From Escherichia coli (lineage in GTDB: Bacteria > Pseudomonadota > Gammaproteobacteria > Enterobacterales > Enterobacteriaceae): 64,000 bases of DNA. The notes beneath the pieces were generated by a model that was not told where the DNA came from, did not search any database, and saw only the letters and a program-made list of their open reading frames with translations. The translations under genes and the position numbers were made by a program. This document shows, in pieces, positions 1,866 to 40,669 of the stretch. Positions within the stretch are counted from its first letter, which is position 1. Every line of letters starts with the position of its first letter. The stretch lies in the NCBI RefSeq assembly GCF_003019035.1, contig NZ_CP027447.1; one strand, 5' to 3'.

Positions 1866-1987
1866 GCAGGTGAATGCAACGTCAAGCGATGGGCGTTGCG
1901 CTCCATATTGTCTTACTTCCTTTTTTGAATTACTGCATAGCACAATTGATTCGTACGACGCCGACTTTGATGAGTCGGCTTTTTTTT
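1866..1987 (+). ncRNA. fnrS: FnrS small RNA (FNR-activated, Hfq-dependent)
   Basis: Sequence GCAGGUGAAUGCAACGUCAAGCGAUGGGCGUUGCGCUCC... ending in GC-rich hairpin GCCGACUUUGAUGAGUCGGC plus U-run; matches recalled FnrS and its zntB-dbpA position. Confidence 0.85.
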
Positions 1988-2247: not shown

Positions 2248-3621
2248 GTGACCGCTTTTTCTACCCTGAATGTTTTGCCTCCCGCCCAACTCACGAACCT
2301 TAATGAGTTGGGTTATTTAACCATGACGCTGGTGCAGGCCGCCGCGCTTCCGGCGATCCTTGCCGGAAAAGATGTTCGCGTGCAGGCGAAAACCGGCAGC
2401 GGCAAAACGGCGGCTTTTGGCCTCGGGCTGCTACAGAAAATTGATGCGTCGCTATTTCAGACCCAGGCTTTAGTGCTGTGTCCTACGCGTGAACTGGCGG
2501 ATCAGGTGGCAGGTGAATTGCGTCGGCTGGCGCGTTTTCTGCCAAATACCAAAATTTTGACGTTGTGCGGTGGTCAACCGTTCGGTATGCAGCGTGATTC
2601 GTTGCAACATGCGCCGCATATTATCGTGGCAACGCCGGGTCGTTTGCTGGATCACTTGCAAAAAGGCACGGTATCACTGGATGCGCTGAATACTTTGGTG
2701 ATGGATGAGGCCGACCGCATGCTGGATATGGGATTTAGCGATGCCATTGATGATGTCATCCGTTTTGCGCCTGCATCTCGACAGACGCTTTTGTTTTCGG
2801 CAACCTGGCCGGAAGCCATCACCGCAATCAGCGGACGAGTGCAACGCGATCCTTTAGCGATTGAAATTGACTCAACAGATGCTCTGCCACCTATTGAACA
2901 ACAATTTTATGAGACATCCAGCAAAGGCAAAATTCCGCTGTTGCAACGGTTATTAAGTTTGCATCAGCCATCCTCTTGCGTGGTGTTTTGCAATACCAAA
3001 AAAGATTGTCAGGCTGTCTGCGACGCGCTGAATGACATAGGGCAAAGTGCATTGTCGTTACATGGCGATCTGGAGCAACGTGACCGCGATCAGACCCTGG
3101 TACGTTTTGCTAACGGTAGCGCTCGTGTGCTGGTCGCGACGGATGTTGCTGCGCGTGGTCTTGATATTAAATCGCTTGAGCTGGTAGTGAACTTTGAACT
3201 GGCGTGGGACCCTGAAGTTCATGTACATCGCATCGGTCGTACAGCGCGTGCAGGAAATAGCGGTCTGGCGATCAGTTTCTGTGCCCCGGAAGAAGCACAG
3301 CGGGCCAATATCATTTCTGACATGTTGCAGATAAAACTTAACTGGCAAACGCCGCCAGTTAATAGTTCCATTGTGCCGCTGGAAGCAGAAATGGCAACGT
3401 TATGTATCGATGGCGGGAAAAAAGCCAAAATGCGCCCGGGTGATGTATTAGGTGCGCTGACAGGAGACATCGGGCTTGATGGCGCAGATATTGGCAAAAT
3501 CGCCGTGCATCCGGCGCATGTCTATGTCGCGGTGCGTCAGGCTGTTGCTCATAAAGCATGGAAACAGTTACAGGGCGGGAAGATTAAAGGAAAAACGTGC
3601 CGGGTGCGGTTATTAAAATAA
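2248..3621 (+). CDS. dbpA: ATP-dependent RNA helicase DbpA (DEAD-box, 23S rRNA specific), 457 aa
   Basis: ORF track; Walker A AKTGSGKT, DEAD motif VMDEAD, SAT motif. Confidence 0.95.
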   Translation: MTAFSTLNVLPPAQLTNLNELGYLTMTLVQAAALPAILAGKDVRVQAKTGSGKTAAFGLGLLQKIDASLFQTQALVLCPTRELADQVAGELRRLARFLPNTKILTLCGGQPFGMQRDSLQHAPHIIVATPGRLLDHLQKGTVSLDALNTLVMDEADRMLDMGFSDAIDDVIRFAPASRQTLLFSATWPEAITAISGRVQRDPLAIEIDSTDALPPIEQQFYETSSKGKIPLLQRLLSLHQPSSCVVFCNTKKDCQAVCDALNDIGQSALSLHGDLEQRDRDQTLVRFANGSARVLVATDVAARGLDIKSLELVVNFELAWDPEVHVHRIGRTARAGNSGLAISFCAPEEAQRANIISDMLQIKLNWQTPPVNSSIVPLEAEMATLCIDGGKKAKMRPGDVLGALTGDIGLDGADIGKIAVHPAHVYVAVRQAVAHKAWKQLQGGKIKGKTCRVRLLK

Positions 3622-3668
3622 TGAAATGTTGAATTGCCGGGTGCAAGAGTAAACATCTTATTCGGGAT

Positions 3669-3750
3669 TGCCGGATGCGACGCTGGCCGCGTCTTCTCCG
3701 GCCTCCATAAGAGTAGCCCGATAAGCTTGCGCATCGGGCGCTATCCGGGT
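3669..3750. repeat. REP/BIME-like extragenic palindromes between convergent dbpA and ttcA
   Basis: GCCGGATGCGACGCTGGCCGCGTCTTCTCCGGCC and a second palindrome CCCGATAAGC...GCGCATCGGGC. Confidence 0.6.
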
Positions 3751-4685
3751 TATTTCACTTCAACCACATTCAGTCGTAACTCATCCAACTGATTTTCATC
3801 TTCTTCAGGCTGCCAACCCGCCGGTTGTAGAGGGATCTCTTCGCGATCAAACGCCAGATCACCCCCGTTAACCACTTCAGAACCGTGGGTAATGCCTTTG
3901 AAATCGAACAGGTTGGTATCGCACAGATGCGACGGCACCACATTCTGCATCGCGCTGAACATCGTCTCGATACGCCCCGGATAACGTTTATCCCAGTCAC
4001 GCAACATGTCAGCAATCACCTGACGTTGCAGGTTAGGCTGTGAACCGCACAGGTTGCACGGAATAATCGGGAACGCTTTTGCATCGGCAAAGCGCTGAAT
4101 ATCTTTCTCGCGGCAGTAGGCCAGCGGACGAATAACGATATGTTTGCCATCATCGCTCATCAGTTTCGGAGGCATACCTTTCATCTTGCCGCCGTAGAAC
4201 ATATTTAAGAACAGCGTTTGCAGGATATCGTCACGATGGTGACCCAACGCGATCTTCGTCGCCCCCAGTTCCGTTGCGGTGCGATAAAGGATACCGCGAC
4301 GAAGACGAGAACACAGTGAGCAAGTGGTTTTGCCCTCCGGAATCTTCTCTTTCACGATACCGTAAGTGTTCTCTTCCACAATCTTGTACTCAACGCCCAG
4401 CTTTTCAAGATACTCGGGCAGAACGTGTTCCGGGAAGCCCGGTTGTTTTTGATCGAGGTTAACAGCCACCAGCGAAAAATTGATTGGCGCGCTTTGCTGC
4501 AAATTGCGCAGAATTTCCAGCATGGTATAGCTGTCTTTACCCCCGGAGAGGCAAACCATGATGCGATCGCCTTCTTCAATCATATTGAAGTCAGCAATGG
4601 CTTCGCCCACGTTACGACGCAGACGTTTTTGTAATTTGTTCAGGTTGTATTGTTCTTTCTTACTAATTTCTTGATTTTGCGACAT
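3750..4685 (-). CDS. ttcA: tRNA 2-thiocytidine(32) synthetase TtcA, 311 aa
   Basis: ORF track; PP-loop SGGKDS and CxxC pairs; N-terminus [10 protein letters not shown]. Confidence 0.93.
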
Positions 4686-4828
4686 TTAAAAGCGACTCAA
4701 TTCGTTATATGGCATCAGAAGAGTATGCGTCATGCCGGAACGCCCAGCATAAGAAATCTGATATAAAAACTGTGGCGTGTATGGTACGGATTAGAGGGGA
4801 AAATGTCAGCACATTTGCGAAATGAATC

Positions 4829-4857
4829 AAAAAGCCCGCAGCAATGTGCGGGCGTTA
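4829..4857 (-). terminator. Rho-independent terminator of uspF
   Basis: Hairpin GCCCGCA...TGCGGGC followed by a T-run on the minus strand, directly after the uspF stop. Confidence 0.6.
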
Positions 4858-4860
4858 GTG

Positions 4861-5376
<516 letters not shown>

Positions 5377-5435: not shown

Positions 5436-6554
5436 TTAGAACTGATAAACCAGACCTAAAGCGACAATATCATCGGTAGAGATGCCGTTGGCAGCGTAGA
5501 AGCTGTCATCTTCATCCAACAGGTTGATTTTATAGTCAACGTAGGTGGACATATTTTTGTTGAAATAGTAAGTCGCGCCAACATCGGCGTATTTAACCAG
5601 ATCTTTATCACCGTCGGTACCGACCAAATCCTTGCCTTTAGACATCAGGAAAGAGACTGCCGGACGCAGCCCAAAATCGAACTGATACTGCGCAGTAACT
5701 TCAAAGTTCTGGGTTTTGTTGGCAATCGTATTTGTTGAATCACCGTAAGGTGTCATGTTACGCGTTTCAGAATACATGGTCGCCAGGTAGATATTGTTAG
5801 CATCGTATTTTGCCCCGGCAGTCCAGGCGTCAGCCTTATCGCCTTTTGCGGTAGAGAATTCAGCCTGCTGGTTAGTGCGATCGGAGCTGGTATAGGCGGC
5901 ACCAAAACTCATGCCCATACCTAAGTCGTAGGTAGTGGAGATGCCAAAACCGTCGCCATTGGCGTTCTTAATGTTTCGATCACCACCGTTTGCGGTACCT
6001 TCTTGCTCATGGGTGACCTGGTTTTCATTCGCGCCCTGGTACTGTAACGCAAAATTCAGACCATCAACCAGACCGAAGAAATCAGTATTACGATAGGTTG
6101 CTACGCCATTGGCTCGACCGGTCATATAGTTATCGGCTTTGGTATAAGAGTCACCACCGAATTCCGGTAGCATATCGGTCCAGCCTTCGATGTCGTACAT
6201 TACGCCATAATTACGACCATAGTCGAATGAACCCAGGTCACCAAATTTCAGACCGGCAAAAGCAAGACGAGTCCAGGAATCACCTTTATCACCTTCAGAG
6301 CCATTAGCCTGCACGTTATATTCCCACTGGCCATACCCAACCAGTTGATCCGTGATTTGCGTTTCACCCTTAAAACCAAAACGCACGTAAGTTTGATCAC
6401 CATCACTATTGGTATTATCAGAAAAATAATGCAGGCCATCAACTTTGCCATACAGATCTAATTTGTTGCCGTCTTTATTATAAACTTCGGCTGCATGTGC
6501 AGCACCTGCGGCGAGCAGGGCAGGAATTAAAAGTGCCAGTACTTTGCTTTTCAT
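5436..6554 (-). CDS. ompN: Outer membrane porin OmpN (OmpC/OmpF family), 372 aa
   Basis: ORF track; signal peptide [22 protein letters not shown]-terminal ...LGLVYQF. Confidence 0.92.
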
Positions 6555-6781
6555 TGAATAAATCCTTTAGTTATTTTATTTGCCTTTTATCCCCATTTCG
6601 GGGAGTGAAAACATCCTAAAGGAGAAGTTCAGTTAGCCGATAAATATCATTTGTTACGCCTTAAGTAAAACCTTAATCAAATAATTCCTCTGAAATGATA
6701 ATAAGTCTGGTGAATGTATCGAAGATAATACATACAAAATAAAAATTATACTTTTAATTTGCTATACGTTATTCTTCGCGG

Positions 6782-6890
6782 GTTATATGCCTTTATTGTC
6801 ACAGATTTTATTTTCTGTTGGGCCATTGCATTGCCACTGATTTTCCAACATATAAAAAGACAAGCCCGAACAGTCGTCCGGGCTTTTTTT
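6782..6890 (+). ncRNA. micC: MicC small RNA (represses ompC)
   Basis: GUUAUAUGCCUUUAUUGUCACAGAUUUUAUUUUCUGUUGGGCCAUUGC... ending in hairpin CCCGAACAGUCGUCCGGGC plus U8; matches recalled MicC and its ompN-ydbK position. Confidence 0.85.
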
Positions 6891-6919
6891 TAGAATTGGA
6901 TAATCCTTATCCAGAGCAT

Positions 6920-23409: not shown

Positions 23410-25716
23410 ATGTTTAAGCCCAGGATTTGCAGCTGGATAGGTTTACTTCCCCTGTTTATGCTGAGTCTTCCAGTACAGGCGGACCTTCGATGTGTTGCAA
23501 ATGCAGTTGATATTGAACCATTTTTTTCTGCGGCTACCGCTGAAGATAAACAACAAGTTGAACAAGCTATCAACAGTAGCGTGAATCTTGTCCCCTTCGG
23601 TTTATCTGCATCGGACTGGAAAGTGCATCGTGGCGATTTAGTGGTAGACGGTAATATAGAGAGTAATCAAAAATTGATTGTTCTTGGCAATTTGACAGTC
23701 AAAGGTAATATTTCCACTTTCTCTCTTTCTAATCCATGGGTTATTCTCGGTAACGTGACGGCAACGAATATAGTTACGGATTCACCACTGTTAATTACCG
23801 GTTCGATAAATGCAAGTGGACTGGTATTTATCGACTCATATTACGATAATCCGTCTACGATTAAGGGGAGTATTAATGCGCGTGGGATATTTATCAATGA
23901 CATAATTGCACCTGTTGTTGCGTCTTCGACAAATAGTGAATTCATGGTCCGTGCGAGTGACAAAAATGACACTGAAAATGTCAAAAAAGCGCTGATGATA
24001 ATAAATCCTGATGCATATTATTGGGATCTAATAAATGATGAAGATGCTCTGAAAGAAATTTTTAAGCGAAGCAATATTCGCATGGCAGGGAATGTCTGTA
24101 ATCTGATGAAAAAAGAAGCGCTGTTTCGCCCTAAGCCTTCTCCTGAGTTAGTGCAGGAATTGCAAATGCTGGATGAAGGCAACGTTGCTGCATTTGAAGG
24201 ACGAGATATTGCGACATTTGATCTTGCCATAATGCGAACTCTCCCAAGGCTTAAAGGAATTTCAGCTAACCTACGCAAACAACTTATTAATAGCAATGAT
24301 GGACAAACGATTGAAAGTATGGCGAGATATATGCCTGACAATGAGATTCTGGAGTTGACCGATCAGCAATTGGGTTACCAGCCTGTTGTTCTGGGGTTGC
24401 TCGACCGTGAACCGCTCTCTGTCGAAATAATGACGCGAATGAGTCATCTACCTGATGGTGTCGGTCCGTTGAATCTTGCGCTACGTGAAAATCTCCCTCT
24501 GGATATCGTCATGACTCTGGCGAAAAGAGATTGGGATATGATCATTCAGGAGCTTTATAAAGATGCGTGGTTATTGCCCGAATCCATTATTGATGGCTAT
24601 ATCCGCAGTAATGATCCCACAATTCGTCAGGTCGGTGCTGGAGGACAACTCACCTACAATCAGGCAATGCAGTTGGCGAACGATTCATCAAACGATGTTG
24701 TCACAAGCTTAGCGTCAAAGCTGGCAGAGATGAAACACCATGGTCAATTGTTGCGGATGACGCCACAAGAGAGTGACAAAATAGCAGTATATTTATACCA
24801 AAAATTCGAGAATGACGATGATCTAATAGGTGCGTTATTTTTAGCGTTGCCAGATAACTTACAGTTTAATTTTGTTAAAAGGATGGAGAAAAAATCCCCT
24901 GCCTACTTTTGCTGTCGGGATATGCAGGTAATTCACTCTGACGCTGCTTTACAACGGTTATTGACACGTTTCAACGATCCTGAGGGGTGGAGTAATCTGG
25001 CGAAAAATCAGTATCTGAGTACGGCGATGAAACAAAAAATTTGGCATCGCGCTTTATTGCATCGAAAAAATAATCCGAAAGCAGATTCTGCAGCATATGA
25101 AACCAGCGCTGATATGATTTTGTCGGAGCTTATCAGCTACGGTGAAGTTGATGACCAGATGCTATTAAATGCCGCCTCTCTGATACGTTCGGAAGGCTGG
25201 GACTTTTTAGAGAGTGCATTAGTTAGTTGGGATAATTTACCCGCTGTTGTCCTCAAGGAATTACAGCAAAATATGCCACGCAATGATATTTGGGCGAAGT
25301 TTTTTCTGAGGCAGGAAAACAGCTCTCGTGCGCAGGTTAACGAAGCGTTACGTGTTTATTATGCACTAGACCCCGATGCGTTAGCACAACTGGATGTACT
25401 GGCAAAACAACCGGATCGTATATGGTGGAGTACACTGGCGAAAAGCAATCTCACATTTTTCAAGTTCGGCGCACTTAACAACCGCCACACACCGCCTGCA
25501 GTACTGGCGGCAGAAATTGATCCCGAGTGGTGGATTGTGGCGATGAATAATCCCCGTTTTCCAGTTGATGTATTAAAGGCGAGGCTGAAACGTGATCCTT
25601 TGCTGGCGTTAGAGCTTGTTAACCCTGAACTGGATTTAGTCCGCCAGCTGGCGCTTAACGGTAAGACGCGCGCAATACGGGAACAAGCGATGAGAAAACT
25701 TGATGAGTTGTATTGA
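23410..25716 (+). CDS. ydbD: Uncharacterised secreted protein YdbD, 768 aa
   Basis: ORF track frame; ATG at 23410 with GGAG 5 nt upstream; signal peptide; length matches YdbD. Confidence 0.8.
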   Translation: MFKPRICSWIGLLPLFMLSLPVQADLRCVANAVDIEPFFSAATAEDKQQVEQAINSSVNLVPFGLSASDWKVHRGDLVVDGNIESNQKLIVLGNLTVKGNISTFSLSNPWVILGNVTATNIVTDSPLLITGSINASGLVFIDSYYDNPSTIKGSINARGIFINDIIAPVVASSTNSEFMVRASDKNDTENVKKALMIINPDAYYWDLINDEDALKEIFKRSNIRMAGNVCNLMKKEALFRPKPSPELVQELQMLDEGNVAAFEGRDIATFDLAIMRTLPRLKGISANLRKQLINSNDGQTIESMARYMPDNEILELTDQQLGYQPVVLGLLDREPLSVEIMTRMSHLPDGVGPLNLALRENLPLDIVMTLAKRDWDMIIQELYKDAWLLPESIIDGYIRSNDPTIRQVGAGGQLTYNQAMQLANDSSNDVVTSLASKLAEMKHHGQLLRMTPQESDKIAVYLYQKFENDDDLIGALFLALPDNLQFNFVKRMEKKSPAYFCCRDMQVIHSDAALQRLLTRFNDPEGWSNLAKNQYLSTAMKQKIWHRALLHRKNNPKADSAAYETSADMILSELISYGEVDDQMLLNAASLIRSEGWDFLESALVSWDNLPAVVLKELQQNMPRNDIWAKFFLRQENSSRAQVNEALRVYYALDPDALAQLDVLAKQPDRIWWSTLAKSNLTFFKFGALNNRHTPPAVLAAEIDPEWWIVAMNNPRFPVDVLKARLKRDPLLALELVNPELDLVRQLALNGKTRAIREQAMRKLDELY

Positions 25717-36497: not shown

Positions 36498-37937
36498 ATG
36501 TCAGTACCCGTTCAACATCCTATGTATATTGATGGACAGTTTGTTACCTGGCGTGGAGACGCATGGATTGATGTGGTAAACCCTGCTACAGAGGCTGTCA
36601 TTTCCCGCATTCCCGATGGTCAGGCCGAGGATGCCCGTAAGGCAATCGATGCAGCAGAACGTGCACAACCAGAATGGGAAGCGTTGCCTGCTATTGAACG
36701 CGCCAGTTGGTTGCGCAAAATCTCCGCCGGGATCCGCAAACGCGCCAGCGAAATCAGTGCGCTGATTGTTGAAGAAGGGGGCAAGATCCAGCAGCTGGCT
36801 GAAGTCGAAGTGGCTTTTACTGCGGACTATATCGATTACATGGCGGAGTGGGCACGGCGTTATGAAGGCGAGATTATTCAAAGCGATCGTCCAGGAGAAA
36901 ATATTCTTCTGTTTAAACGTGCGCTTGGCGTGACTACCGGCATTCTGCCGTGGAACTTCCCGTTCTTCCTCATTGCCCGCAAAATGGCCCCCGCTCTTTT
37001 GACCGGTAATACCATCGTCATTAAACCCAGTGAATTTACGCCAAACAATGCGATTGCATTCGCCAAAATTGTCGATGAAATAGGCCTTCCGCGCGGCGTG
37101 TTTAACCTTGTTCTGGGGCGTGGTGAAACCGTTGGGCAAGAACTGGCGGGTAACCCAAAGGTCGCAATGGTCAGTATGACAGGCAGCGTCTCTGCAGGTG
37201 AAAAGATTATGGCGACTGCGGCGAAAAACATCACCAAAGTGTGCCTGGAATTGGGGGGTAAAGCACCGGCTATCGTAATGGACGATGCCGATCTTGAACT
37301 GGCAGTCAAAGCCATCGTTGATTCACGCGTTATTAATAGTGGGCAAGTGTGTAACTGTGCAGAACGTGTTTATGTACAGAAAGGCATTTATGATCAGTTT
37401 GTCAATCGGCTGGGTGAAGCGTTGCAGGCGGTTCAATTTGGTAACCCCGCTGAACGCAACGACATTGCGATGGGGCCGTTGATTAACGCCGCGGCGCTGG
37501 AAAGGGTCGAGCAAAAAGTGGCGCGCGCAGTAGAAGAAGGGGCGAGAGTGGCGTTGGGTGGCAAAGCGGTAGAGGGGAAAGGATATTATTATCCGCCGAC
37601 ATTGCTGCTGGATGTTCGCCAGGAAATGTCGATTATGCATGAGGAAACCTTTGGCCCGGTTCTGCCGGTGGTCGCATTTGATACGCTGGAAGAGGCTATC
37701 TCAATGGCGAATGATAGTGATTACGGCCTGACCTCATCAATCTATACCCAAAATCTGAACGTCGCGATGAAAGCCATTAACGGGCTGAAGTTTGGTGAAA
37801 CTTACATCAACCGTGAAAACTTCGAAGCTATGCAAGGCTTCCACGCCGGATGGCGTAAATCTGGTATTGGCGGCGCAGATGGTAAACATGGCCTGCATGA
37901 ATATCTGCAGACCCAGGTGGTTTATTTACAGTCTTAA
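36498..37937 (+). CDS. aldA: Lactaldehyde dehydrogenase (NAD-dependent aldehyde dehydrogenase), 479 aa
   Basis: ORF track; ALDH catalytic Cys (GQVCNCAER) and Glu (LELGGKAP) motifs. Confidence 0.95.
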   Translation: MSVPVQHPMYIDGQFVTWRGDAWIDVVNPATEAVISRIPDGQAEDARKAIDAAERAQPEWEALPAIERASWLRKISAGIRKRASEISALIVEEGGKIQQLAEVEVAFTADYIDYMAEWARRYEGEIIQSDRPGENILLFKRALGVTTGILPWNFPFFLIARKMAPALLTGNTIVIKPSEFTPNNAIAFAKIVDEIGLPRGVFNLVLGRGETVGQELAGNPKVAMVSMTGSVSAGEKIMATAAKNITKVCLELGGKAPAIVMDDADLELAVKAIVDSRVINSGQVCNCAERVYVQKGIYDQFVNRLGEALQAVQFGNPAERNDIAMGPLINAAALERVEQKVARAVEEGARVALGGKAVEGKGYYYPPTLLLDVRQEMSIMHEETFGPVLPVVAFDTLEEAISMANDSDYGLTSSIYTQNLNVAMKAINGLKFGETYINRENFEAMQGFHAGWRKSGIGGADGKHGLHEYLQTQVVYLQS

Positions 37938-37947
37938 TGAGTGGAAG

Positions 37948-37970
37948 AGGCGGAGGTTTTTCCTCCGCCT
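37948..37970. terminator. Bidirectional terminator between convergent aldA and gapC
   Basis: Hairpin AGGCGGAGG-TTTTT-CCTCCGCCT. Confidence 0.65.
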
Positions 37971-37977
37971 GTGTGCG

Positions 37978-38979
37978 TCAGAGTTTAGCGAATTTTTCGA
38001 GGGTGCGAATGAGCTGTGTGACGAAGCCATATTCGTTATCGTACCAGGCGACCGTTTTCACCAGTTGTAAATCGCCCACGGCGGTAATTTCCGTTTGCGT
38101 GGCATCAAACACCGAACCGAAATGGCTGCCAATGATATCGGAAGAGACTATTTCTTCATCGGTATAACCAAATGACTCGTTATTGGTGGTTGCTTGTTTA
38201 AGTGCGTTATTCACCTCTTCGGCAGTCACTTTTTTTCCGAGAATGGACACCAGCTCAGTGACCGAACCTGTTTTCACCGGCACGCGTTGCGCATGACCTT
38301 TCAGTTTGCCGCTCAGTTCCGGGATCACCAGACCAATGGCTTTTGCCGCACCTGTAGTGTGGGGAATGATATTTTCTGCCGCTGCACGTGAAGCGCGTAG
38401 ATCTTTACCTCGCGGACCATCCACCAGTGACTGAGTGCCGGTATAGGCATGAATGGTCGTCATCGTGCCGACTTCTATTCCGAAACTGTCGTGCAAGGCT
38501 TTGGCCATCGGTGCAAGACAGTTAGTGGTGCATGACGCCACGGAAACAATGGTGTCGTTGCCATCCAGTGTGTCGTCATTGACGTTATAAACGATGGTTT
38601 TCATTTCACCGGCAGGGGCGGAAATCAACACCTTCTTCGCACCAGCATCAAGGTGCGCCTGCGATTTCTCGGCGGAGGTATAAAAGCCAGTACATTCGAC
38701 AATGATTTCTGCGCCTTTCGCTTTCCATGGAATATTTTTAGCCTCTTTTTCGGCGTAAACCGCGATACTTTTTCCATCAACGATAAGTGAATCTTCCGTA
38801 AAATCAACGCTCCAGGGGAACGGTCCGTAGTTTGAATCATGTTTCAACAGGTAGGCGAGAATTTTTGGGGAAGTGAGATCATTAATAGCAACAATGTCTA
38901 TGTTGCTTTTGACTTCAAGTAATCGACGCAACACCAGTCGACCGATACGACCAAAACCGTTAATACCAACTTTACTCAT
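37978..38979 (-). CDS. gapC: Glyceraldehyde-3-phosphate dehydrogenase paralogue, intact 333-aa reading frame
   Basis: ORF track; NAD-binding NGFGRIGR and catalytic-site SCTTNCLAP present; RBS AGGAGA upstream. Confidence 0.9.
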
Positions 38980-39167
38980 GGTCTTCTCCTGTCAGGAACG
39001 TTCGGATGAAAATTGATCCTTTCCAGGCTTAGACCAGGATGGCGGGATGGGCAATCTACATTCTTGCCGTGAAACGTAACGTACTGAAAACGGGTGAACA
39101 ATATTTAATGAAATTTTAAGAAAAGCTCGTTATGTTAACGGAAAATTATGTTAAAGCAGGAAATGTT

Positions 39168-39698
39168 ATGGAAAGTAAATATTCAAGGTTACAAATCGGC
39201 ATTCACTGGCTGGTCTTTTTGCTGGTTATCGCAGCGTATTGCGCAATGGAGTTTCGTGGTTTTTTCCCACGTGGCGATAGGCCGCTTATCAACATGATTC
39301 ATGTTTCCTGTGGCATCTCAATTCTCGTGCTGATGGTTGTTCGTCTTTTGTTAAGGCTTAAATACCCAACTCCGCCGATTGTACCTAAACCAAAACCGAT
39401 GATGACGGGACTGGCGCATTTGGGACATTTGGTGATCTATCTCCTGTTTATTGCGCTGCCAGTGATTGGTTTGGTGATGATGTATAACCGGGGCAACCCG
39501 TGGTCTGCGTTTGGTATGACAATGCCTTATGCAGCAGAGGCCAATTTCGAACGGGTTGATAGCTTAAAGTGGTGGCATGAGACGCTGGCGAATCTGGGAT
39601 ATTTTGTCATCGGGTTGCACGCTGCGGCTGCACTGGCACACCACTATTTCTGGAAGGACAACACACTTCTACGCATGATGCCGCGTAAACGTTCCTGA
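39168..39698 (+). CDS. cybB: Cytochrome b561, 176 aa
   Basis: ORF track frame; start at MESKYSRLQIGIHWLVFLLV; four-TM haem protein pattern. Confidence 0.9.
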   Translation: MESKYSRLQIGIHWLVFLLVIAAYCAMEFRGFFPRGDRPLINMIHVSCGISILVLMVVRLLLRLKYPTPPIVPKPKPMMTGLAHLGHLVIYLLFIALPVIGLVMMYNRGNPWSAFGMTMPYAAEANFERVDSLKWWHETLANLGYFVIGLHAAAALAHHYFWKDNTLLRMMPRKRS

Positions 39699-39708
39699 AG
39701 GATCTTTA

Positions 39709-39772
39709 AAGAAAACGCCTGTACTAAAACCGACCCGCGGTACAGGCGAAGAGTACGGGCCTACATCGGAAG
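39709..39772 (-). ncRNA. rydC: RydC small RNA (about 64 nt)
   Basis: Minus strand reads CUUCCGAUGUAGGCCCGUACUCUUCGCCUGUACCGCGGGUCGGUUUUAGUACAGGCGUUUUCUU; matches recalled RydC and its position just downstream of cybB. Confidence 0.65.
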
Positions 39773-40187: not shown

Positions 40188-40395
<208 letters not shown>

Positions 40396-40669
40396 TCGTT
40401 GGCCTCGGTTGATAGAAATATCGGTCGGGGCCTTCGTCTTTCTGATTCCCGGTTAGCCTGAAAACAGAAAGTCTCAGGCACCCGTGAGCATCCTATGTGG
40501 TTTCCTTAGGGACGAAAATAATCACCTGACGAAATTGCGTGCTGTTTTCCAGAATTTTTCGTCATTCGGGTTAGCCGGTTTAGCCATTCGTTACTCTCTT
40601 CATTCCAATAGCATTAATTTTCTCTGCAATAATTGTTGTAAAAATGTGACGCAAAGAGGTTTTTGGTCA

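Follow-up and report, generated by a model that had tools for sequence, protein, structure and literature searches.

An intact gapC gene in Escherichia coli as the likely source of a second, conditionally expressed GAPDH

The gapC locus of Escherichia coli raises the question of whether a strain with an uninterrupted reading frame at this position could have, alongside GapA, a second functional glyceraldehyde-3-phosphate dehydrogenase (GAPDH). We addressed it in a window of 64,000 nucleotides of an E. coli genome (contig NZ_CP027447.1 of assembly GCF_003019035.1), to which the coordinates below refer. Our results suggest that the open reading frame (ORF) between aldA and cybB is an intact gapC, encoding a second type I, NAD+-dependent phosphorylating GAPDH that would serve as a conditionally expressed isozyme, and that the K-12 pseudogene is the derived state; we put the probability of this reading at about 0.93.

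The gapC reading frame and its product

The gene and its immediate surroundings are as follows.

37978..38979, minus strand: gapC coding sequence (product GapC; EcGAPDH1 in the structural literature), 333 codons plus stop, from the ORF list, Pfam and TIGR01534
38985..38990, minus strand: Shine-Dalgarno sequence AGGAGA, from direct reading of the sequence, with a 5-6 nt spacer to the ATG
36498..37937, plus strand: aldA, convergent with gapC
39168..39698, plus strand: cybB, divergent from gapC

The ORF listing of the window gave a product of 333 amino acids with an ATG start and zero internal stops. This agrees with an earlier, sequence-only reading of the same DNA, which had proposed an uninterrupted 333-codon gene at 37978-38979, strand unstated; the gene lies on the minus strand. 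The good ribosome-binding site claimed along with it was found in the sequence and its reverse complement as AGGAGA, 5 to 6 nt ahead of the ATG. On the gapC-sense strand, the sequence around the ribosome-binding site and start reads ...CCTGACAGGAGAAGACCATG, and the AGGAGA is conserved across all lineages compared. The order aldA-gapC-cybB is the same in K-12, and the nucleotide identity to the full-length K-12 gapC is 97.2%, which places the gene at the E. coli gapC locus as the orthologue of b4493. Its DNA is identical to an intact gap coding sequence annotated in NZ_CP033635.1 (RefSeq, WP_000048646.1), strain ECCNB12-2 has an identical sequence throughout the locus, and the exact protein occurs on at least 1000 public contigs; the intactness of the ORF is therefore far beyond chance.

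GapC matched the Pfam domains Gp_dh_N (PF00044; 122.7 bits, E = 8.6e-36) and Gp_dh_C (PF02800; 195.2 bits, E = 6.5e-58) at full length. Residues 3-325 matched TIGR01534, the NCBIfam equivalog for GAPDH-I, at 446.7 bits against a cut-off of 367.2, and this type I model was the sole one in NCBIfam whose cut-off GapC passed. The catalytic residues are encoded at two positions.

38530..38532, minus strand: codon 150, catalytic Cys in SCTTNCLAP (residues 149-157), from the residue check
38449..38451, minus strand: codon 177, catalytic His in TTIHAYT, from the residue check

The NAD-binding GxGxxG and catalytic-cysteine SCTTNCLAP motifs, said in the sequence-only reading to be retained, do lie at residues 7-13 (NGFGRIG) and 149-157 of the translation. 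The Rossmann motif runs G8-F-G10-R-I-G13 and is accompanied by an NAD-selecting acidic residue, D34, which fits specificity for NAD over NADP. C150 and H177 supply the catalytic pair of a type I GAPDH, and the Ps and Pi phosphate sites are represented by T180, T182, R232, S149, T151, T209, and G210. The NAD contacts R11, I12, D34, and S120 match those listed for EcGAPDH1 (PMC8615399); indeed, all residues named as catalytic or ligand binding in that study were found in the window GapC.

A sequence search of the PDB returned the series 7C5F/7C5G/7C5H/7C7K, identical to GapC at 332 of 333 residues (99.7%) and differing only by I29V; the next best entries after those from E. coli scored 481.9 bits or less. 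In sequence, the crystallized EcGAPDH1 is the gapC product encoded in E. coli B, O111, and WAT. Judged by sequence, the EcGAPDH1 structures are thus those of the gapC product and not of GapA, a link that is easily missed since the gene is not named in the paper (the name gapC has 0 occurrences in PMC8615399). Wild-type EcGAPDH1 showed NAD-dependent activity with a KM of 0.73 mM for D-glyceraldehyde-3-phosphate (D-G3P), in kinetics run at 50 C and pH 10, far from physiological conditions, and all activity figures belong to the Val29 variant and not to the Ile29 allele of the window (PMC8615399). The C150A, C150S, and H177A mutants were inactive or nearly so: C150A was inactive, and H177A was about 8000-fold less active. 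Crystals trapped the thioacyl intermediate and 1,3-bisphosphoglycerate (1,3-BPG), and G3P was turned over with NAD+ and phosphate (PMC8615399).

GapC would accordingly be expected to oxidize glyceraldehyde-3-phosphate to 1,3-bisphosphoglycerate by the standard mechanism, in which Cys150 would form a thiohemiacetal and then a thioacyl intermediate, with His177 as the base; hydride would pass to NAD+, and phosphate would then attack the thioester. The Cys150/His177 thioacyl mechanism was shown for the near-identical protein and is extended here to the window allele.

Selection on the gene was estimated by the Nei-Gojobori method. The dN/dS ratio was 0.01-0.04 between the window gapC and each of 13 other intact alleles and 0.046 over all pairs of intact alleles, with dS at 0.08-0.16; intact gapC alleles are under strong purifying selection. 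The near-identical active and structurally solved enzyme, the conserved active-site residues, and this selection together indicate that the window gapC is a real gene and very probably functional. The suggestion that this strain might have a second functional GAPDH is thereby well supported as regards capacity, given that the I29V variant is active and the catalytic residues are kept. The strain presumably transcribes and translates the gene.

The K-12 pseudogene and the frequency of broken alleles

In K-12 MG1655, gapC (b4493) is annotated as a 1001-bp pseudogene, and the copy in DH1 is flagged by PGAP as "frameshifted; internal stop"; older papers name the two pieces gapC_1 and gapC_2 (e.g., PMC4447067 and PMC2759082). 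The sequence-only reading had described the K-12 copy as a split pseudogene and had proposed an alignment to locate the damage. Its description is borne out by both annotations and by the pairwise alignment, in which the window and K-12 genes differ over 1002 bp by 28 substitutions and 1 indel, so that K-12 is not identical across the full frame. Two of these differences are lesions: codon 39 is a stop in K-12, and an A run is shorter by 1 bp.

38863..38865, minus strand: codon 39, AAA (Lys) here and a TAA stop in K-12, with the substitution at 38865, from the alignment
38236..38242, minus strand: A7 run in codons 246-248 (GGA AAA AAA), A6 in K-12 with a resulting frameshift, from the alignment

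K-12 gapC also differs by R18G and I29V, and the other 25 of the 28 substitutions are synonymous. Only 79 of 5417 gapC-locus records were at least 99% identical to the window allele by megablast. The identity of about 97% to most E. coli had prompted us to consider horizontal replacement of gapC; this was rejected, since the flanking 8 kb is as divergent from K-12 (97.3% identity) as the gene itself (97.2%), and there is no sign of foreign replacement.

To see how common the lesions are, complete E. coli genomes were searched with allele-specific megablast, using short queries in which every 28-mer seed was forced to span the lesion; on 18 control sequences of known genotype, the queries had perfect specificity. 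Megablast with the locus itself gave matches in 5417 of 5426 genomes. The K-12 TAA39 allele was found in 1155 of the 5426 (21%), and AAA39 on common haplotypes in 3717. The A6 frameshift was found in 1049 of 5426, a count that covers the K-12 A6 allele only, as the BLAST low-complexity filter would probably mask A7. The two codon-39 queries together covered 4872 of 5417 genomes, and about 545 were matched by neither; by the controls, these fit the O157:H7/DETEC-C31 haplotype, in which codon 39 is AAA and no 28-mer is common to it and either query. Five of 5436 matching places for the gapC region were on records classed as plasmid, not chromosome.

Thirteen loci outside the K-12 clade were then sampled down the identity ranking (GPEC1031, 1579, S1, E. 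coli B, O111:H-, CFSAN027346, Ecol_448, WAT, E2348/69, ATCC 25922, A33, O157:H7, and DETEC-C31). All 13, including those from B, O111, B2, and O157:H7 backgrounds, had an intact 1002-bp gap coding sequence, and all 13 of these alleles kept the A7 run. About four fifths of complete E. coli genomes are therefore without the K-12 stop allele, and every sampled one of them is intact; intact gapC is the majority and usual state in E. coli.

The K-12-type pseudogene also occurs outside laboratory strains: KFu023, isolated from river water, and LZYWN_4, isolated from swine, have pseudogenes identical to that of K-12 over all 1001 bases. The lesions of K-12 amount to a natural lineage polymorphism, with TAA39 in about 21% of genomes, and do not stem from laboratory passage, an origin implied by at least one later citation of work from 1998. 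The K-12 pseudogene would have been derived within one natural lineage by a nonsense mutation plus a homopolymer frameshift. The difference between the TAA39 and A6 counts (1155 and 1049) means that about 100 genomes may have the stop without the frameshift; if real, they would suggest that the nonsense mutation preceded the frameshift. Alternatively, single-nucleotide polymorphisms close by may have kept the 30-mer query from seeding in those genomes.

Apart from the K-12 lesions, the only damage to gapC seen was in one raw-milk isolate, SCPM-O-B-7615 (NZ_CP144926.1; positions 2653-4830 of sampled locus L017), where gap has lost its 3' part and aldA its 3' end through an IS1-associated deletion. 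An independent lesion of the locus is present in O111:H- 110512 (positions 1296-1433 of locus L008), in which aldA is frameshifted and gapC is intact. In E. coli B-DidR (NZ_CP115968.1; positions 163-860 of locus L007), IS1A lies between cybB and gapC, about 170 bp ahead of the gapC start codon. Interruption of the gene itself by IS1 in E. coli B was considered and rejected, because the element is in the upstream intergenic region and the coding sequence is intact; the insertion could disrupt or replace the native gapC promoter in B/BL21-type strains.

Loss of gapC may mark an ecological split, in which a host-restricted sublineage no longer has a sigma-S-dependent, cold or fresh-water GAPDH isozyme needed outside the host. 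The finding of the identical double-lesion pseudogene in river-water and swine isolates and in about one fifth of genomes, together with strong purifying selection in the other lineages, led us to this idea, which we consider unlikely on balance and which concerns the pseudogene-bearing clade, not the window allele. If true, it would correct the laboratory-domestication view and make gapC status a simple marker of environmental persistence.

Several other features of the window were noted. The gene ttcA (3754-4689, minus strand) is directly followed by uspF (4865-5299, minus strand) at 3754-5299; these two genes are separated in K-12 by the 23-kb cryptic prophage Rac, integrated at ttcA, so that the window strain has an empty Rac attachment site. 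At 15544-22279, ydbL is directly followed by an intact 5955-bp autotransporter coding sequence (16325-22279, plus strand, WP_001170210.1); the window lacks feaR-feaB-tynA and the paa phenylacetate cluster, the genes that come after ydbL in K-12. The autotransporter may correspond to the ydbA locus, a pseudogene disrupted by insertion sequences in K-12, in which case it would be a second gene that is broken in K-12 and intact here. The reverse of the gapC situation is seen for ydbD (DUF2773 bactofilin; 23411-25716), which the 100%-identical RefSeq record annotates as a pseudogene with a frameshift. The porin at 5440-6558 (minus strand) is named ompC by PGAP but lies at the position of K-12 ompN, beside the MicC small RNA (Rfam, 6779-6899, plus strand); ompC is probably the wrong name for what would be a porin of the OmpN type. 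Three further RNAs exceeded the Rfam gathering threshold.

1866-1983, plus strand: FnrS small RNA
39709-39772, minus strand: RydC small RNA, just downstream of cybB
40332-40483, minus strand: sok antitoxin RNA of the hokB/sokB locus

Expression of gapC and alternative readings

Two noncoding stretches flanking gapC bear on its expression.

38980..39167, no strand assigned: gapC-cybB intergenic region, 188 bp, divergent; presumed to hold the gapC promoter(s), a position that is inferred
37947..37969, no strand assigned: GC-rich hairpin GGCGGAGG-loop-CCTCCGCC, located in the 40 bp that separate the stop codons of aldA and gapC, two convergent genes

The 188-bp intergenic region is highly conserved between lineages in a six-lineage alignment. 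A consensus scan upstream of gapC gave no convincing sigma-70 promoter; its one weak match, TTTCCA-18-CATAAT (minus strand, 39174..39145), was no better than those in shuffled sequence. In published data, a ChIP-seq peak of the sigma-S holoenzyme (E-sigmaS) falls at the K-12 gapC_1/cybB intergenic region (PMC4447067), and gapC transcripts drop when rpoS is inactivated (PMC2759082). A CsrA-dependent gapC transcript was detected in enteropathogenic E. coli (EPEC) (PMC6333774); the EPEC strain E2348/69 carries an intact gapC allele. PMC2949598, citing Espinosa-Urgel and Kolter (1998), reports that environmental isolates carry an intact gapC and that the gene is expressed preferentially in fresh water. 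From these data, gapC would be transcribed from the gapC-cybB intergenic region in a sigma-S-dependent manner, with a preference for fresh water. As to the physiological role, we infer that GapC would be a conditionally expressed isozyme and not the main glycolytic enzyme.

At the other end of the gene, the hairpin between aldA and gapC folded on the gapC-sense strand at -18.2 kcal/mol (z = -4.6), and 0 of 200 shuffled sequences were as stable. The terminator scan did not call it, because no T run follows the hairpin. It is probably a shared bidirectional terminator, ending both transcripts.

An intact frame might nevertheless be a silent relic, unexpressed or useless and drifting towards the state of the K-12 pseudogene. 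Such a view could draw on the lack of a clear sigma-70 promoter upstream of gapC, on the point mutations that have cost 21% of complete genomes the gene, and on the IS1 events, namely, the truncation in one strain and the insertion in the upstream region of E. coli B. A dN/dS of about 0.05 over a dS of about 0.09-0.16 is, however, incompatible with neutral drift, and the 13 of 13 intact loci outside the K-12 clade, the conserved 188 bp and ribosome-binding site, the published transcripts (PMC6333774 and PMC2759082), and the binding of sigma-S polymerase (PMC4447067) all argue against it, so that we regard a silent relic as very improbable. Against our own reading stands the lack of a working gapC in about one in five complete E. 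coli genomes, which makes the gene dispensable in at least some niches.

More improbable still is an enzyme with the GAPDH fold but another primary role, whether as an Epd-like erythrose-4-phosphate dehydrogenase (E4PD), in ArsJ-coupled arsenate detoxification, or as an NADP-dependent or nonphosphorylating enzyme. A second copy invites specialization when GapA already serves glycolysis, and GapC does have NCBIfam matches to the models concerned; these are nonetheless far below threshold, at 276.5 against 530.55 bits (TIGR01532) and 279.8 against 539 bits (NF010058) for Epd/GapB and at 307.3 against 450 bits for the ArsJ-associated GAPDH (NF033735), while only the GAPDH-I equivalog exceeded its cut-off. 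No arsJ adjoins gapC, whose neighbors are aldA and cybB. D34 is an NAD-specificity residue, and the near-identical enzyme uses G3P, NAD+, and phosphate, with the thioacyl intermediate and 1,3-BPG trapped in its crystals (PMC8615399), the reverse of a strong preference for erythrose-4-phosphate or NADP+. The least credible explanation is that gapC only looks intact because of an error in sequencing or assembly, for instance a wrong base count in a homopolymer. One K-12 lesion is indeed a single-base change in a homopolymer, a classic site of sequencing error, but the nonsense codon, an independent substitution, is also absent from the window, the identical sequence occurs in a finished genome and the exact protein on at least 1000 contigs, and A7 is present in all 13 other intact alleles. 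The reading that we prefer remains an intact gapC encoding a conditionally expressed second GAPDH.

Known relatives and significance

An intact gapC is already known: it is annotated in RefSeq, named in UniProt, structurally solved, and kinetically characterized. The gene was described in 1996 by Hidalgo et al., as cited in PMC10614358, and a 1998 report, relayed by PMC2949598, had it intact in natural isolates and damaged in laboratory strains; gapC has also been used as a species marker for E. coli in quantitative PCR (PMC10614358). The finding of gapC in the window is thus correct but ordinary and has little import beyond annotation hygiene. What it does illustrate is that metabolic models based on K-12, and the Keio "gapC" knockout, are unrepresentative of most E. 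coli, which are able to encode two GAPDH isozymes.

GapA is constitutive, highly expressed, and essential for glycolysis. GapA (b1779) has the same fold, reaction, SCTTNCLAP active-site motif, and binding motif (11 residues, letters not shown) as GapC; the two proteins are only 47.7% identical (156/327) and are encoded at different loci. Epd (GapB), the gammaproteobacterial erythrose-4-phosphate dehydrogenase, has the GAPDH-family fold and a catalytic Cys in common with GapC, but the Epd models, with cut-offs of 530-539, give the window protein 276-280 bits, and it is not a member. The other comparisons are with gapC itself. K-12 gapC (b4493) occupies the orthologous aldA-cybB locus and carries TAA39, the 1-bp deletion in the A run, and R18G, while the window allele has neither lesion. 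GapC of O157:H7 (UniProt P58072, cited in PMC10614358) is an intact 333-residue orthologue in which just two residues depart from the window protein, I29V and N132K, with 96.3% nucleotide identity. Closest of all is EcGAPDH1 (Zhang et al., Biomolecules 2021, PMC8615399), which has the same Cys150, His177, and phosphate- and NAD-binding residues as the window GapC and differs from it by a single conservative substitution, Val29 for Ile29.
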